Origin: Ruminococcus sp.
Lineage (GTDB): Bacteria > Bacillota > Clostridia > Oscillospirales > Ruminococcaceae
Direction: 5' to 3'
Assembly: GCA_015066705.1 (NCBI GenBank)
Contig: SVNV01000007.1
Coordinates: 7,573 to 71,572 of the forward strand
DNA: 64,000 bases
This document shows positions 11,313 to 50,593 of this stretch, piece by piece. The notes beneath the pieces were generated by a model. That model ran no database searches. It saw only the letters and a program-made list of their open reading frames with translations, and was not told the origin of the DNA. The position numbers and the translations under genes were made by a program. The number at the start of each line of letters is the position of its first letter. Positions within the stretch are counted from its first letter, which is position 1.

Positions 11313-12017
11313 ATGATTAGAAAATACAAAATTTGCGACTTGATAGTTGAATGTGATTTCCGCTTTGAAACTATGCTTTCACGAAGCGAGAAATTTGCAT
11401 TTGATACCGAAAAAGAGGCTGATATTACTATCGGCTATGATAAAAAACACCACGAATTTCTTTTGAAAAACGCAGAAAATTTCACAGAAAAGGATTGCGA
11501 AGTAATGTCAACGGGGAAGAAGTTTTATAATGAACTTCTGAACTTTGACGGCTTTATGCTTCATTCTTCGGCAGTTATGGTTGACGGAAAGGTTTTTCTT
11601 TTTTCTGCACCAAGCGGAACGGGGAAGTCTACCCATACAAGACAATGGCGTAAGCTTTTCGGCGAAAGAGCAGTAATCATTAACGATGATAAACCTGCAA
11701 TAAGAATTGTTGACGGTAAAATCTATGCCTATGGAACCCCTTGGAGCGGAAGCTCTGAGCTCAATAGTACCGATTTCGGAATTCTTCAGGGGATATGTGT
11801 TCTTTCCCGTAGTGAGGAAAATTATATCCGACCTCTAGACCAGAGTAAAGCGATTTTCTCCGTTTTAAATCAGACTATAAGACCTGCCGACGAAAAGAAG
11901 ATGGATAAACTTCTTGCAGTGCTTGATAAGGTAGTAAGCGGAGTGAAAATCTGGCAGATGGGCTGTAATATTTCCACTGACGCAGCACAACTTGCATATG
12001 ACGCTATGAGTAAATAA
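11313..12017 (+). CDS. HPr-kinase-like P-loop kinase (lasso-peptide kinase-like)
   Basis: LHSSAVMVDGKVFLFSAPSGTGKSTHTRQW...AVIINDD matches the HprK C-terminal domain layout (H-G/S..V...G..vL..G.SG.GKS...DD). Translationally coupled to L2. Confidence 0.75.
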   Translation: MIRKYKICDLIVECDFRFETMLSRSEKFAFDTEKEADITIGYDKKHHEFLLKNAENFTEKDCEVMSTGKKFYNELLNFDGFMLHSSAVMVDGKVFLFSAPSGTGKSTHTRQWRKLFGERAVIINDDKPAIRIVDGKIYAYGTPWSGSSELNSTDFGILQGICVLSRSEENYIRPLDQSKAIFSVLNQTIRPADEKKMDKLLAVLDKVVSGVKIWQMGCNISTDAAQLAYDAMSK

Positions 12018-12034
12018 AAAAAAGTACCTAACAT

Positions 12035-12339
12035 TAAGGCGGATAGTTATATAGAAGTATATTATATGAATTTATCGGGGCGAAACCTTTCTGAAGAAAG
12101 GTTGTCCCCCGAACCCCCTTCCAAAGACTTTAATATTAAAATAACTATCCCCCGCTGTGCGGGGGATAGTTATTTTAAATACTGAAGTTTTAGGAAAGGA
12201 GTTTGAGGATGACTCCCCACAAGGTGGGGAGATGTCTGCGTAGCAGACAGAGGGGACAGGCGACCGTTGGGAGAACCCTTTTTCAAAAGGGTTTTCCTCA
12301 ATAAGTCCGTATAATACTTCTTTATGACCACTCACCTTA
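12035..12339 (-). mobile_element. MITE-like structured repeat, copy 1 (305 bp including flanking TA), inserted in the loop of a bidirectional terminator
   Basis: About 95% identical over shared parts to the reverse complement of 48468-48710. Imperfect 24-30 bp terminal inverted repeats (AGGTGAGTGGTCATAAAGAAGTAT / AGGCGGATAGTTATATAGAAGTAT). TA on both sides. Flanks aaagtacctaaca / tgttaggtacttt are perfect complements, i.e. a split terminator stem. Confidence 0.7.
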
Positions 12340-12357
12340 TGTTAGGTACTTTTTTGT

Positions 12358-13989
12358 TTAGTTGAAGCTTCTTACCCACGTCACAAGCGAGCCATGATGT
12401 GTGTTATCGTGAACGTCCTTAGCCATTCTGTCGGTGACCGGACCGTTTTTACGCATCTTCTCGATAATGCAAAGCTGTAATTCCTCGACAGTCATTTCTT
12501 CGTATGACTTGTTCTTTGGAATTTCTACAACCTTTTCAACCTTTTCTTCAACCTTGATTTCAGGCTTTTCTTCTGCCTTAATCTCTGCCATTTCCACGAC
12601 TTTGACCTTTTCAGGCTGTTGAACTTCAAGCTCTACCGGCTCATAAACCTTTCCGCTTGCTGTCGGAATCCATATTTCGCCTGAGTTACCCTTGACAGTC
12701 AAGGAAATTCTTCCTTCGATTGCTGAAAGCTTTTCACCTGAAAGTGCACCTGTATATTCACCACAGCCTGCCGGAAGATTTATAGTAACATCATTGTTAT
12801 CGTTGTTTACAACCACAATAACGTCATCTCTCGAAAAAGCGTACTGCTTGTTTGTGAGTAAAAGCTCCTTGTAGTTTCCGTATGAAAGTGCCATTGTTCC
12901 CTGACGAATTTTTCCTAAGGCTGAAATAAGCTTGACAAATTGATTGTTTTTCGCTTCTGAAATAAACTTTTCTATGTCAATTTCAGGTCTTAATGAGTCG
13001 TCAGAGCCTTTCATTTTAGCTCCCTCAATTCCGAATTCAGAGCCGTAATATACTGACGGCACACCTGGAAGGGTATATAAAAGAATGTGTACAGGTATAA
13101 AATGCTGTTTGTTTGTGAGCTTAGTGTAAATTCTTTCTACATCGTGATTGTCAACGAAATTGTAGAGCTTCAATCCTTCAGGTCTGTTTCCGCCCATTTC
13201 GTAAAGACGCTTTACTGTGTGGGCAATTTCAAAATAGTTGTGGTCGTTGTGACCTGAATATAAAGCCTTGTGAAGGTGATAATTTGTAACCGAATGTAGT
13301 GTTCCTTCGTTTACCCAGCGATTGTAATCCCCGTGAATAACCTCTCCCATAAGCCAGAAATCAGGCTTAACTTCATTTGCAACCCTGCGTAGAGCCTGCA
13401 TATATGAAAAATCAAGAACATCAGCAGCATCAAGTCTTATTCCGTCAATGTCAAATTCACTGACCCAGAAGCGTATAACATCACAGATGTAATCTATAAC
13501 AGCAGGATTGTGCTGATTGAGTTTAGCGAGAAGATTGTACCCGCCCCAGTTATCGTAAGAAAAACCGTCATTGTATTCGTTGTTTCCGCAGAAATTAACG
13601 TTGCAATACCAGTCTTTGAAGTGTGAAGTCTCACGCTTTTCTCTGATGTCCTTAAAAGCAAAGAAATTTCTGCCAGTGTGATTAAAAACACCATCAAAAA
13701 TAACCTTGATACCTTGCTTGTGACATTCAGCTACAAAATCCGTAAGGTCCTTGTTTGTACCGAGTCTGCTGTCAAGCTTTTTGTAATCGGTAGTTTCATA
13801 ACCGTGACCTTCAGATTCAAAAAGGGGACCTATATATAAAGCATTAAAGCCGGATTCCTTTATGTGTGAAATCCAGGGAATTAGTTTAGTAATCCTTGAA
13901 ACAGGCTCAGAATAGCTGTTTTGCTTAGGCGCACCAACCATTCCCAAGGGATAAATGTGATAAAAAACTGCCTCGTCAAACCAGGCCAT
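12358..13989 (-). CDS. GH13 alpha-amylase-family glycoside hydrolase (intracellular; neopullulanase/oligo-glucosidase-like) with a charged C-terminal extension
   Basis: Track ORF 12358..14166. The ATG at 13989 is preferred (GGAGGT RBS; N-terminus MAWFDEAVFYHIYPLG). GH13 regions DGVFNHTG, DGIRLDAAD, MGEVIHGD and FVDNHD. Confidence 0.85.
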   Translation of the reverse strand: MAWFDEAVFYHIYPLGMVGAPKQNSYSEPVSRITKLIPWISHIKESGFNALYIGPLFESEGHGYETTDYKKLDSRLGTNKDLTDFVAECHKQGIKVIFDGVFNHTGRNFFAFKDIREKRETSHFKDWYCNVNFCGNNEYNDGFSYDNWGGYNLLAKLNQHNPAVIDYICDVIRFWVSEFDIDGIRLDAADVLDFSYMQALRRVANEVKPDFWLMGEVIHGDYNRWVNEGTLHSVTNYHLHKALYSGHNDHNYFEIAHTVKRLYEMGGNRPEGLKLYNFVDNHDVERIYTKLTNKQHFIPVHILLYTLPGVPSVYYGSEFGIEGAKMKGSDDSLRPEIDIEKFISEAKNNQFVKLISALGKIRQGTMALSYGNYKELLLTNKQYAFSRDDVIVVVNNDNNDVTINLPAGCGEYTGALSGEKLSAIEGRISLTVKGNSGEIWIPTASGKVYEPVELEVQQPEKVKVVEMAEIKAEEKPEIKVEEKVEKVVEIPKNKSYEEMTVEELQLCIIEKMRKNGPVTDRMAKDVHDNTHHGSLVTWVRSFN

Positions 13990-14113
13990 AGCAGTACCTC
14001 CGAAATATGCGATTTGTGTTATTACACAATAAAATAATACCATAAATCCGTAAAAAAAGCAATAAAAAAATAAAAGCGTTGCTTCCAATTTCAGGAAACA
14101 ACGCTTGATATTT

Positions 14114-14707
14114 TTATTCGTAAAGCTTGAGAATGTTTTCCCATTCCTTGAGTGCGATAATTGCAATATCAGGGTCGTACATTGTACCGATGTTGTTGTG
14201 AATTTCCATTCTTACAACTTCAAGAGGCATAGCACTTCTGTATGCTCTTTCAGAAGACATAGCGTCAATAGAATCACATACTGCTATAATTCTTGCTCCG
14301 AGAGGAATATCTTCGCCCTTTAAACCTGAAGGATAGCCTTCGCCGTCGTATCTTTCGTGGTGGTGAAGAACAAGATTTGCAATATCAGTGAGCTTGTCGC
14401 TCTTTGAGAGAATATCAGCACCAATCTTTGGGTGTTTCTTGACAAGGTCCCACTCGTAGCTGTTAAGACAACCGTTTTTAAGAAGAATTGTGTCAGGAAC
14501 GCCGATTTTACCGATATCGTGAACGTGCCCTGCAATGTGAATTATATTAGTTTCTTCTTCTGACAAACCAAGGCTCTGGCATAAAAGCAAAGCCATATCG
14601 CCTACACGCAAAGAATGTTCGCCTGTATAAGGGTCTCTTACGTCAACGGCAGTAGTAATACATTCAATTAAATCATGATATTCAAAGTTTTCGTGTGGAC
14701 ATCCCAT
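14114..14707 (-). CDS. HD-GYP domain protein (putative c-di-GMP phosphodiesterase)
   Basis: Motifs HSLRV, HDIGK and HHHERYDGEGYP. Confidence 0.85.
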   Translation of the reverse strand: MGCPHENFEYHDLIECITTAVDVRDPYTGEHSLRVGDMALLLCQSLGLSEEETNIIHIAGHVHDIGKIGVPDTILLKNGCLNSYEWDLVKKHPKIGADILSKSDKLTDIANLVLHHHERYDGEGYPSGLKGEDIPLGARIIAVCDSIDAMSSERAYRSAMPLEVVRMEIHNNIGTMYDPDIAIIALKEWENILKLYE

Positions 14708-47984: not shown

Positions 47985-48455
47985 ATGAATGAGTATATGA
48001 AATATGCACTTTCACTTGCTGAAAAAGCCGCAGAAATCGGAGAAGTACCTGTGGGTGCTGTCGTTGTGAAACGCTCAACAGGTGAAATTGTTGGGGAAGG
48101 CTATAATAAACGTGAAACCGAAAAATCCCCGCTTGCCCACGCTGAGATTGAAGCTATCTATAATGCTTCTCAGAAACTTGGTGGATGGCGTCTTGTGGAC
48201 TGCGACTTGTATGTTACTCTTGAACCTTGCCCGATGTGTAGTGGCGCAATTATAAATTCAAGGGTTGAAAGAGTTTTCTTCGGAGCTTATGATAAAAAAT
48301 CAGGTGCGTGTGGCTCCGTTACAAACCTGTTTGAACTTCCTTTCAATCATTTTCCTGAAATTACCGGGGGAGTAATGGAAGAGGAATGTAGTGGAATTCT
48401 GTCAGAGTTTTTCAAAAAACTCCGTGAAAATCCAAAGAAAAAATGTAATAAATAA
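47985..48455 (+). CDS. tadA: tRNA adenosine(34) deaminase
   Basis: HAEIEAI and PCPMCSGA zinc-binding motifs. Confidence 0.92.
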   Translation: MNEYMKYALSLAEKAAEIGEVPVGAVVVKRSTGEIVGEGYNKRETEKSPLAHAEIEAIYNASQKLGGWRLVDCDLYVTLEPCPMCSGAIINSRVERVFFGAYDKKSGACGSVTNLFELPFNHFPEITGGVMEEECSGILSEFFKKLRENPKKKCNK

Positions 48456-48467
48456 ATCCCTTTTCAT

Positions 48468-48710
48468 TAAGGTGAGTGGGCATAAAGAAGTATTATACGG
48501 ACTTATTGAGGAAAACCCTTTTGAAAAAGGGTTATTCCTCAAACTCCTTTCCTAAAACTTCAGTATTTAAAATAACTATCCCCCGCACAGCGAGGGATAG
48601 TTATTTTAATATTAAAGTCTTTGGAAGGGGGTTCGGGGGACAACCTTTCTTCAGAAAGGTTTCGCCCCGATAAATTCATATAATATACTTCTATATAACT
48701 ACCTACCTTA
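48468..48710 (+). mobile_element. MITE-like structured repeat, copy 2 (243 bp including flanking TA), inserted in the loop of the tadA terminator
   Basis: Reverse-complement match to 12035-12339, minus a 64-nt internal module. The flanks aaatcccttttca / tcggaaagggatt form a split hairpin followed by TTTTTT. Same AGGTGAGTGG... / ...CCTACCT ends with TA on both sides. Confidence 0.7.
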
Positions 48711-48765
48711 TCGGAAAGGGATTAAATTTTTTACGTTTTCTTATTGATAAAATTTGCAAAACCTC

Positions 48766-48794
48766 TTGAAATTCAAAGGGGATTGTGGTATAAT
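48766..48794 (+). promoter_or_regulatory. Promoter of the SRP RNA gene
   Basis: TTGAAA (48766-48771), 17 nt, TGgTATAAT (hexamer 48789-48794). Confidence 0.65.
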
Positions 48795-48800
48795 TATATA

Positions 48801-48966
48801 GTGGCTTGTGCCGGATAGGATTTTAATGTCAATCCGAGATATAGGTGTGCGGGTCCTGTGCAATGAAACGCTGTGAACCATGTCAGGCGGGGAACCGAGC
48901 AGCATTAAGCAGTTTGTTTTGTGTGACGCAGTTTCGCCTGCATACCTGTATGTCGGATTGAATTTT
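48801..48966 (+). ncRNA. ffs: Signal recognition particle RNA (4.5S/scRNA); boundaries approximate
   Basis: gggtcctgtgcaatg...tgaaccatgtcaggcggggaaccgagcagcattaag closely matches the domain IV region remembered from Bacillus subtilis scRNA (GGGTCCTGCGCAATG...TGAACCATGTCAGGTCCGGAAGGAAGCAGCATTAAG). A long closing helix (tccgagatataggtgtgcg / cgcctgcatacctgtatgtcgga) is followed by a T-run. The gene occupies the canonical position upstream of dnaX-ybaB-recR. Confidence 0.88.
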
Positions 48967-48982: not shown

Positions 48983-50593
48983 ATGTATCAGGCTTTGTAT
49001 CGTAAGTGGCGACCTATGACCTTTGACGATGTTGTGGGACAGCCTCATATTACCTCTACACTTAAAAATCAGATTAAGAATAATAAGGTTGCACACGCTT
49101 ATCTCTTTACTGGTTCAAGAGGAACAGGTAAGACAACCTGTGCAAGAATTTTTGCAAAGACAATAAACTGCCTTAACCCTAAGGACGGCTCACCTTGTCT
49201 TGAGTGTGAAATCTGTAAGGCTGCCGATAAAGGCGTTCTTAACGATATTATTGAAATTGACGCTGCTTCAAATACAGGCGTTGACGATATCAGAGAAATC
49301 CGTGATTCTGCAGCATTTCTTCCTGAAATCTGTAAGTATAAGGTTTATATCATTGACGAAGTTCATATGATTACCCCTAACGCTTTTAACGCTTTTCTTA
49401 AGATTCTTGAAGAACCACCTGCACACGTTAAATTTATTTTTGCAACAACTGAGGACCATAAGGTGCTCCCGACAATTACATCACGTTGTCAGGGCTTTAA
49501 GTTCAATAGAATCCAGACCAACGATATCGTAAAAAGACTTGAATATATCGCTTCTCAGGAGAATATCAGACTTGATTCCAATGCTGCTGCACTTGTGGCT
49601 AAGCTGTCTGACGGCGGAATGAGAGATGCACTTTCGCTTCTCGACCAGTGTGCCGCATTTTCAGGGGATATTGATGTTGAAACTGTTTCTGCTGCTGCGG
49701 GAATTGCAAACAGAGATTACCTTTTTGAGCTTCTGGAATGTGTCAGGGATAATAACCCGACGGAAGCTATTACTATTGTTGATAAGCTTTATGAAATGTC
49801 AAAGGATATGCAACAGCTTTGTGTGGAGCTTCTGACACTTATAAGAGATATGATGCTTGTAAAGGCTGTGACCGGTAAGGACGAGCTTCTTTCCTGCCTG
49901 CCTGATGAAGCTTCAAGACTGAGAGAAATTTCCGATAAGATGGATTTGGGAACTATTCTTTCAAAGCTTGATATCATTAAGGAATGTAACGAAAGACTTC
50001 CGAGAGCTAATTCAAAACGTGTTGAAATCGAAATGTGTATCGTTAAGCTTTGTAGCGATATCAGTAGATTTTCTGCACCATCAAAATCGGCTTCTGTTGA
50101 TAATGAAACGGTAAAACGTCTTGAAAACCGTATCTATAGGCTTGAAGAAATGCTCGCTAACGGCGTTTCTGTAAAGACAAAAGCTACTGTCGATGAACCT
50201 CTTGTTCCAAACCAGCAGGCACCTGTTGCGGAGCCGGTTGTGGATACTTCAAAAATTAAACAGGAACAGCTTCAACCGGTTACCGATTGGAGCGAAATTG
50301 TGGATAGAGTAATGGCTTCAAACCCTCAGGTGGGAGGATTTCTTGCAAAATCCACAGCATTCGAGTATGAGAATGTGTTCTTTATTATCGTTGATAATGA
50401 CTTTTTCCTGAAACTCTTCAAGGAGTCTGATTCGGCAAGAATTATTCAGGAGGAGCTTAAGAATTATAACGGAAAGACTTACGCTATCAGAGTTAAATCT
50501 GCTAAGAATGTGTCACCTGAGGATAGTGAAAATCCTATAAATAAGCTGATGCAGAGAGCAAAAGATGCTGATATCGTGGTTGATATACATTAA
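48983..50593 (+). CDS. dnaX: DNA polymerase III subunits gamma/tau
   Basis: Motifs YRKWRP, GSRGTGKTTCARIFAK, DEVHM and SRCQ. Confidence 0.95.
   Translation: MYQALYRKWRPMTFDDVVGQPHITSTLKNQIKNNKVAHAYLFTGSRGTGKTTCARIFAKTINCLNPKDGSPCLECEICKAADKGVLNDIIEIDAASNTGVDDIREIRDSAAFLPEICKYKVYIIDEVHMITPNAFNAFLKILEEPPAHVKFIFATTEDHKVLPTITSRCQGFKFNRIQTNDIVKRLEYIASQENIRLDSNAAALVAKLSDGGMRDALSLLDQCAAFSGDIDVETVSAAAGIANRDYLFELLECVRDNNPTEAITIVDKLYEMSKDMQQLCVELLTLIRDMMLVKAVTGKDELLSCLPDEASRLREISDKMDLGTILSKLDIIKECNERLPRANSKRVEIEMCIVKLCSDISRFSAPSKSASVDNETVKRLENRIYRLEEMLANGVSVKTKATVDEPLVPNQQAPVAEPVVDTSKIKQEQLQPVTDWSEIVDRVMASNPQVGGFLAKSTAFEYENVFFIIVDNDFFLKLFKESDSARIIQEELKNYNGKTYAIRVKSAKNVSPEDSENPINKLMQRAKDADIVVDIH

Follow-up and report, generated by a model that had tools for sequence, protein, structure and literature searches.

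How does the same short noncoding sequence come to lie twice in one stretch of a bacterial genome, in opposite orientations and each time between the two arms of a transcription terminator? The question is raised by a stretch of 64,000 nucleotides (the window; C25:7573-71572) from a metagenome-assembled genome (MAG) of Ruminococcus sp., which comprises 1.70 Mb in 33 contigs and is 99.8% complete (G000). [quoted passage not shown] Both positions were borne out, and the oppositely oriented copies are about 98% identical once one is reverse-complemented and a 62-nt net insertion or deletion is set aside. Copy 2 serves as the reference orientation. The MITE-like family is real, with structure-directed targeting of terminator loops. 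The element is probably a nonautonomous DNA transposon of 243 bp, noncoding and pseudo-palindromic, that relies on an enzyme acting in trans and enters pre-existing palindromes at a TA in their center.

Insertion sites in terminator loops

Copy 1 is located between the stops of the convergent genes 11313..12017 (+) and 12358..14166 (-). The left arm of the terminator that it splits, aaagtacctaaca (12021-12033), lies 4 nt past the stop of the first gene and pairs with the right arm, tgttaggtacttt (12340-12352), which together with its T-run occupies 12340-12355, just ahead of the stop of the second gene. The rebuilt terminator has a folding energy of -18.4 kcal/mol. Copy 2 begins 13 nt beyond the gene 47985..48455 (tadA). 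Its left arm, aaatcccttttca (48454-48466), is found directly after this gene, and its right arm, tcggaaagggatt (48711-48723), is followed by AAA and then TTTTTT (48711-48732). A TA stands at both ends of each copy (12035-12036 and 12338-12339; 48468-48469 and 48709-48710). The annotation had read the flanks as terminator arms and had seen TAs abutting the ends; site-specific inverted repeats with T-runs were found at both copies, the TAs are likewise present at most other copies, and the pattern is general in the family.

The 26 internal copies of the genome were aligned with their flanks. The copies end in TAAGG...CCTTA, the adjoining arms differ from site to site, and T-runs lie beyond, as in GGCATCAGTT-TA..TA-AACTGATGCC and AAAAGCACGGCT-..-AGCCGTGCTTTT. 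Empty sites were then rebuilt as 22 nt + TA + 22 nt for 25 of the genome's copies and compared with 3000 random TA sites. The rebuilt sites had a mean folding energy of -13.0 kcal/mol, compared to -5.2 kcal/mol for the random sites, and arms of at least 8 bp were present in 18 of 25 as against 5.8% of the controls. Pairing between the two flanks was also assessed for 51 complete copies from 11 genomes, using the flanks of other copies as the comparison, which also cancels the generic effect of A-runs and T-runs. Flanks of the same copy paired far better than flanks of different copies (p=1e-10).

The insertion point coincides with the loop TA of the strongest local hairpin in 17 of the 26 internal copies, and the joint chance of this placement, calculated as the product of 1/nTA over the same gaps, is 1e-12. 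This placement holds even in gaps with 10-32 TAs and, therefore, survival of harmless insertions alone cannot explain the pattern. The base preceding the TA is usually T and the base following it is usually A, and many rebuilt sites are perfect palindromes through the center. Gaps between convergent genes hold 17 of the 26 copies, typically 15-25 nt from each stop, while only 12% of gene pairs are convergent (p=3e-10). Orientation showed no bias with respect to gene direction (4 same, 3 opposite) or to the inferred leading strand (13 vs 22, p=0.18). Elsewhere in the genome, about 346 terminator-like hairpins are unoccupied, including 116 with a TA in the loop. At C17:32260-32340, a second intact terminator, AAAAAGCACGGCTTGACCGTGCTTTTTT, was observed about 60 bp from the occupied one at C17:32344-32587, with nearly the same arms (AAAAGCACGGCT/AGCCGTGCTTTT).

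Copy number, spread and insert-free sites

The annotation had set the number of copies and the existence of insert-free orthologs as tests of its proposal, and both came out in its favor. A blastn search gave 42 places in the host genome: 25 full-length internal copies, 1 truncated copy, 15 contig-end fragments, and 1 match to the central hairpin only. The family thus numbers about 35-40 copies rather than two and makes up about 0.5% of the genome. Of the additional copies, most have TA at their flanks as well as copy-specific arms with T-runs. Since 15 contig ends of the MAG fall within the element, the family evidently breaks the assembly; no insertion-sequence (IS) fragments were found at contig ends lying outside the element. 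Copies in this genome are 98-100% identical to each other by blastn, which argues for recent activity.

Among 30 relatives screened, the element was restricted to the same genus, with at least 25 matches in one congener (G001) and a diverged form in another (G004). The congeners G002, G003, and G005 gave no match. An exact-pattern scan with one genome per species extended the range by at least 10 MAG species; their gut samples were of deer, yak-type, horse, or other origin, and their labels are Ruminiclostridium sp., Oscillospiraceae, or Ruminococcus sp. A metagenome scan yielded 8 further loci or contigs, all of them nonautonomous variants with longer central hairpins. Plasmid and phage collections did not contain the element by blastn, and a 17-mer scan of IMG/VR returned chance hits only.

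To find insert-free sites, both flanks of 12 occupied sites were joined and queried against the congeners. Three orthologous sites in G001 were insert-free. In two of these, the terminator hairpin is intact and its loop holds a single TA where the occupied site has TA-element-TA: G001:C19 reads AAAATCCGAAGGTTT-TA-AAGCCTTCGGATTTTTT, with flanks 93% identical to those in the host, and G001:C158 reads CCCACCTTT-TA-TAAGGTGGG. The third, G001:C114, has a hairpin with a different loop that lacks a TA. The site in G003 (C20) that is orthologous to G001:C19 is also without an insert, and its hairpin sequence differs. These insert-free orthologs indicate that the terminator hairpins pre-exist and that the element is mobile. 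The gap holding copy 1 is occupied in G001 too, with different arms, and sites that are occupied in both genomes suggest that some insertions are old or recurrent. The site of copy 2 was unusable for this comparison as the congeners have other genes between tadA and the signal recognition particle (SRP) RNA gene, amounting to 1.2-2.8 kb in G001, G002, and G003.

Excision footprints of the form TARRG...CYYTA within terminator loops were no more frequent genome-wide than a control motif. At two loci, L137:4740-4830 and L064:6895-7060, tiny palindromes made up of element-like tips only (TAAGGATAATCACCTTA; TAAAGGGTGCCCCTTTA) were seen between a terminator arm and a full copy; these could be excision footprints or tip-only derivatives. 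At the G001 loci L074/L075 (G001:C203 and G001:C140), which are orthologous to C29:51823-52062 of the host, the right-end sequence of the element lies against both flanks of one terminator. Such an arrangement calls for a pair of copies placed head to head or, alternatively, for a population carrying the element both ways round after inversion between the arms.

Structure and conservation of the element

The element matches its own reverse complement at 72-76%. The annotation had described terminal inverted repeats (TIRs) of 24-30 bp; the repeats were found again but not that length, since a recognizable consensus of about 16 nt, TAAGGYRRGTRGYCAT, at both ends merges into an imperfect palindrome over the whole element. 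When folded with its flanks, either strand gives the same predicted arrangement: the terminator arms lead into a helix formed by both ends of the element, which is topped by hairpin A, a long central hairpin, and hairpin B. The free energy of this fold is -127 kcal/mol on either strand (z = -13.8). Conservation, taken as the majority fraction across 47 copies, is highest for hairpin A with its spacer (0.95, element positions 36-95) and for the second spacer with hairpin B (0.93, positions 147-205). It is 0.77-0.81 in the inner TIR, 0.62-0.65 in the outermost 13 nt, 0.63 in the center, and about 0.5 in the flanks. In hairpin A, the outer stem has undergone compensated changes (GAGGGA...TCCCTC and GTGGCA...TGCCAC).

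The central hairpin has a perfect stem of 18-23 bp in nearly all copies, but its sequence varies, with about ten unrelated versions among them. Its loops are found in both orientations, e.g. GCACAGC and GCTGTGC, which suggests that the DNA often adopts a hairpin or cruciform form and that the arms recombine with each other. In the host genome, A-runs and T-runs flank this hairpin; both of its strands match a simple terminator consensus in copy 1, and the minus strand does so in copy 2. The type-1 central hairpin (AAAATAACTATCCCCCGCxxxGCGGGGGATAGTTATTTT) also occurs alone at C27:67176-67215, where it forms a bidirectional terminator separating convergent genes; in G001, another terminator fills the orthologous gap. 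The lone hairpin was either captured by the element or left behind by it.

In copy 2, the left TIR region (48470-48507, +) is followed by hairpin A with the pyrimidine-rich spacer CTCCTTTCCTAAAACTT (48508-48560, +), the type-1 central hairpin with one mismatch (48566-48609), the purine-rich spacer AAAGTCTTTGGAAGGGGG with hairpin B (48614-48668, +), and the right TIR region (48669-48708, +). The two spacer-and-hairpin segments are the conserved core. Copy 1 is inverted, so that the plus strand shows the reverse complement of the TIR consensus in its right-end (12037-12076, -) and left-end (12300-12337, -) regions. Between them lie the sub-terminal hairpin B (12077-12110, -), which belongs to the conserved core; the perfect central hairpin, preceded by an A-run and followed by a T-run (12136-12179), whose positions 12148-12165 were flagged as terminator-like on both strands; and the inner stem-loop of hairpin A (12274-12293, -). 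Compared to copy 2, copy 1 has an accessory two-hairpin module of 64 nt (12210-12273, -) within hairpin A in place of 2 nt, and this accounts for its length of 305 bp. The same module occurs at C4:56687-56750, in a copy with a different center, and the metagenome copy L140 has it at the mirrored place within hairpin B. Its recurrence indicates that the family is a mosaic of modules.

The sole open reading frame (ORF; 12072..12335, 87 aa) is disrupted in the 243-bp copies, as the 62-nt difference is no multiple of 3. In copy 1 only, the module also yields AAAGGAG followed, after 7 nt, by the ATG of a 31-codon ORF (MTPHKVGRCLRSRQRGQATVGRTLFQKGFPQ and a stop; window 12209-12304, +). This ORF is absent in the 243-bp copies and is probably fortuitous. 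The conserved pyrimidine spacer CTCCTTTCC (element positions 81-95, window 48548-48562) resembles the 3' end of 16S rRNA, the conserved purine spacer GGAAGGGGG (positions 147-165, window 48614-48632) is Shine-Dalgarno (SD)-like, and the two pair with each other in the fold. The annotation had also asked whether a known RNA family was present. A scan of 11800-12600 found no Rfam family at the gathering threshold and just generic miRNA-like hairpin matches far below it, with Gut-1 (RF01706) not among them. Downstream of copy 2 (window 48766-48966), a near-consensus promoter, TTGAAA-17-TATAAT with a TG, precedes an SRP-RNA-like sequence (…CCATGTCAGGCGGGGAACCGAGCAGC…). After it come a large ORF (48983..50593) and two smaller ORFs, in an order that suggests dnaX, ybaB, and recR.

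Mobilization, alternatives and known systems

The reading that we consider likely, a MITE-like transposon moved in trans, would work as follows. The element would be mobilized by an enzyme acting in trans and would integrate at a TA, usually within T-TA-A, in the center of a palindrome. In practice, its targets would be the loops of intrinsic terminators, chiefly the bidirectional ones between convergent genes. Because the arms differ at every site, the enzyme may read DNA shape, either a two-fold symmetric AT-centered palindrome or an extruded cruciform, and not the arm sequence. It would probably be a DDE transposase of the TA-duplicating IS630/Tc1-mariner kind that comes from outside the assembled genome, and its binding sites could be the conserved sub-terminal hairpins A and B, not the variable outermost 12 nt. 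The host may tolerate insertion for two reasons. The element ends would pair and extend the split terminator stem, such that the arms and the U-run are still brought together. Also, the central hairpin of this genome, with its A-runs and T-runs, may stop transcription arriving from either side. It is plausible that terminator loops are, as the annotation put it, a selectively neutral niche.

TA on both sides is a signature of IS630/Tc1-mariner transposition, and we infer the IS630 link of the element. TA is its own complement, however, and a 2-bp duplication gives the same sequence as insertion inside one TA. The TA duplication that the annotation proposed, as in IS630/Tc1-mariner MITEs, is compatible with the TA flanks, and insertion inside one TA is equally so; the IS630 origin is unproven. 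The single target sequence expected of an IS110-type element was not seen, as the target arms differ at every site. The element also departs from IS200/IS605-derived PATEs in its symmetric TIR ends, the lack of a significant strand bias, and the lack of a Y1 gene in the host. The unbiased orientation relative to replication speaks against a single-strand mechanism like that of IS200/IS605. If inversion between arms lies behind the right-end/right-end site in G001, it may have erased a strand bias.

Several results weigh against the transposon reading. In profile searches, for which control genomes gave the expected scores, PF13358 (DDE_3, IS630) had no hit above cut-off in 12 distinct element-bearing MAGs, the host included, and PF01609 (DDE_Tnp_1), PF00665 (rve), and PF01548 (DEDD_Tnp_IS110) were absent from the host and G001. 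An nhmmer search of the host with a TIR profile found no long TIR pair, none of the transposase loci of other genomes bears these TIRs, and, as described above, the plasmid, phage, and IMG/VR collections lack the element. An autonomous IS with matching TIRs, which the annotation had suggested looking for, was therefore not found in the host or at the transposase loci of other genomes; no transposase explaining mobility lies in the window, as the annotation had stated, or in the genome. The conservation profile is unlike that of an ordinary MITE, with 0.93-0.95 in the core and 0.62-0.65 in the outermost 13 nt. The elements of G004 (L081 = C42, L100 = C1) have the same core of hairpin A, spacer, and hairpin B between unrelated termini, CTGCTCTGCTGTT; their central hairpin is much longer, with a loop of about 60 nt, and two of them lie side by side on C1. 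About one-fourth to one-third of the copies, mostly of a second subfamily, are without clear flanking arms, and the central hairpin of several other species has no clean U-tract. At the junctions of a few copies, TCA/TGA is present or TA is missing; the TCA/TGA cases are explained better by a palindrome corrected later, or by insertion inside one TA, than by strict TA duplication.

Some candidates were rejected along the way. The lone weak DDE_3 hit was a glycosyltransferase, and a weak TIR pair on host C19, 1.2 kb apart, encloses ordinary genes. PF05635 was considered as a partner gene, but it is absent from the host and found in the element-free G002, and it does not correlate with the element.

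Another possible explanation, though a doubtful one, is that the element belongs to an unrecognized class of gut Clostridia elements that seek palindrome centers. Its sub-terminal hairpins would be the recognition module, the target would be read by shape, the enzyme would lie outside the searched families, and the central palindrome would be a by-product of hairpin-based replication or repair. The terminal repeats may then have been swapped between lineages, and the enzyme may be a host single-copy protein or come from an unassembled element. We regard it as unlikely that this is a hairpin-DNA element of the REPIN/BIME or IS200/IS605-PATE kind, in which a single-strand-specific enzyme (HUH/Y1 or other) would bind the sub-terminal hairpins and insert the element between T and A of an extruded loop, with no duplication. 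Conservation of the core hairpins far above the termini, left and right halves that remain distinct across species, and the shared core of G004 with its different termini would all fit such an element, as would the perfect central palindromes with flip/flop loops, which indicate frequent hairpin or cruciform DNA states, and the preference for convergent-gene gaps, as in REP (repetitive extragenic palindromic) sequences. Moreover, the junctions ...CCCCCT/CAGGGG...CCCTG/AGGGGG... (slashes mark the junctions) give a perfect TA-centered palindrome only under insertion inside the TA. However, PF01797 (Y1_Tnp) was absent from the host, G001, G004, and 6 of 9 other element-bearing genomes. Replication-strand bias is strong in IS200/IS605 and was not seen here, although arm inversion could have erased it, and the two ends mirror each other for about 40 nt, as is usual for double-strand TIR transposons.

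The remaining alternatives do without targeting or without a transposon. Integration might occur at any TA, with survivors only in terminator loops since a compact genome offers no other harmless place. With 1421 crude genes in 1.7 Mb, the genome is densely packed, and many of the occupied gaps are just 20-60 bp when rebuilt, with 1-6 TAs. This explanation is nevertheless quite improbable: the loop TA is used even where 10-32 TAs are available (C13:23523, C15:1473, C21:84164, C22:83336, C25:56040, and C30:2986), insertions between stop codon and stem should be no more harmful than splitting the stem yet are rare, and the same pattern is present in at least 10 species with larger genomes. If anything, it is even less probable that the repeat is a structured module serving the host, such as a 3'-untranslated region (UTR)/terminator RNA or a protein-binding DNA site, that was copied between terminators by recombination. 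Such a module could account for a core conserved across species with compensatory changes, for the occurrence of the type-1 central hairpin alone as an ordinary terminator (C27:67176-67215), and for the conserved tracts CUCCUUUCC and GGAAGGGGG, which, as read from the sequence, pair mutually and resemble anti-SD and SD. It is hard to reconcile with precise boundaries at TA between unrelated flanks, insert-free orthologous terminators, the near-identity of the host's copies (98-100%), and a patchy distribution inside one genus in which closely related species lack the element. Orientation is also unbiased, and Rfam gave no match.

If targeting by the transposon is structure-directed, the element would be a clean example of a safe-harbor strategy, landing where no gene is broken and repairing the very structure that it interrupts. 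It would also offer a natural setting in which to ask if transposases are able to recognize DNA shape (a cruciform or AT-centered palindrome) rather than sequence. The conserved hairpin core, which has no recognized partner enzyme, provides a defined starting point in the search for a new mobilization protein. In practical terms, the element fragments assemblies of uncultured ruminant-gut bacteria, as the 15 contig ends in the host MAG illustrate, and it lengthens the 3' UTRs of about one-tenth of convergent gene pairs.

Among known systems, the bacterial MITEs attributed to IS630/Tc1-mariner (PMC10969869), such as Correia/NEMIS in Neisseria, RUP in Streptococcus pneumoniae, and Nezha in cyanobacteria, are, like the element, small, noncoding, and multi-copy, with TIRs and TA on both sides. 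Correia/NEMIS, RUP, and Nezha also share the long hairpin fold, the intergenic location, and the lack of an own transposase. They differ in their target, which for the element is the center of a pre-existing terminator palindrome and not any TA, and the element further has sub-terminal hairpins conserved above the TIR tips and a perfect central hairpin of variable sequence. To our knowledge, Correia, RUP, and Nezha do not target terminator loops. Contrary to what is expected for an IS630-type MITE, the 12 distinct MAGs searched have no IS630-family transposase. A review of MITEs mentions terminator formation merely as a possibility (PMC10969869), and in full-text literature searches no MITE was described as inserting into terminator loops. 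The pneumococcal SPRITE is likewise a dispersed terminator-like repeat of Firmicutes that is strongly enriched near the 3' ends of convergent genes. SPRITE is, however, a single long hairpin with a U-rich tail that is not reported to split resident terminators, whereas the element is a three-hairpin unit inside a resident terminator loop for which insert-free orthologs were seen.

Integration within extragenic palindromes is shared with IS1397 and ISKpn1 (IS3 family) and with IS621, ISPpu9, and ISPpu10 (IS110 family; PMC1525189, PMC12288879). Those ISs are autonomous, and one repeated REP sequence is recognized by their transposase or bridge RNA; the element is nonautonomous and enters many terminators that are unrelated in sequence and alike only in shape and in having an AT-rich center. 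REPINs/BIMEs with RAYT (PMC3116915, PMC3333891) are also inverted pairs of conserved hairpin modules that form a long extragenic hairpin, often between convergent genes, with the enzyme encoded outside the repeat. In contrast to them, the element has no Y1/RAYT gene in its host, is a much larger unit, has TIRs and TA, and inserts into terminator loops. Group IIC introns, which belong to the retroelements, exceed 600 nt, include a ribozyme, and insert downstream of a terminator stem-loop in one orientation. Intrinsic terminator stem-loops are an integration landmark for both these bacterial class C (IIC) group II introns, which are mentioned in PMC7923331, and the element, but the latter is 243 bp long, has no ribozyme match, and is found inside the loop in both orientations. 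Compared to known MITEs, the element is distinctive in its structure-directed targeting of terminator loops and in its unusually conserved core of sub-terminal hairpins.

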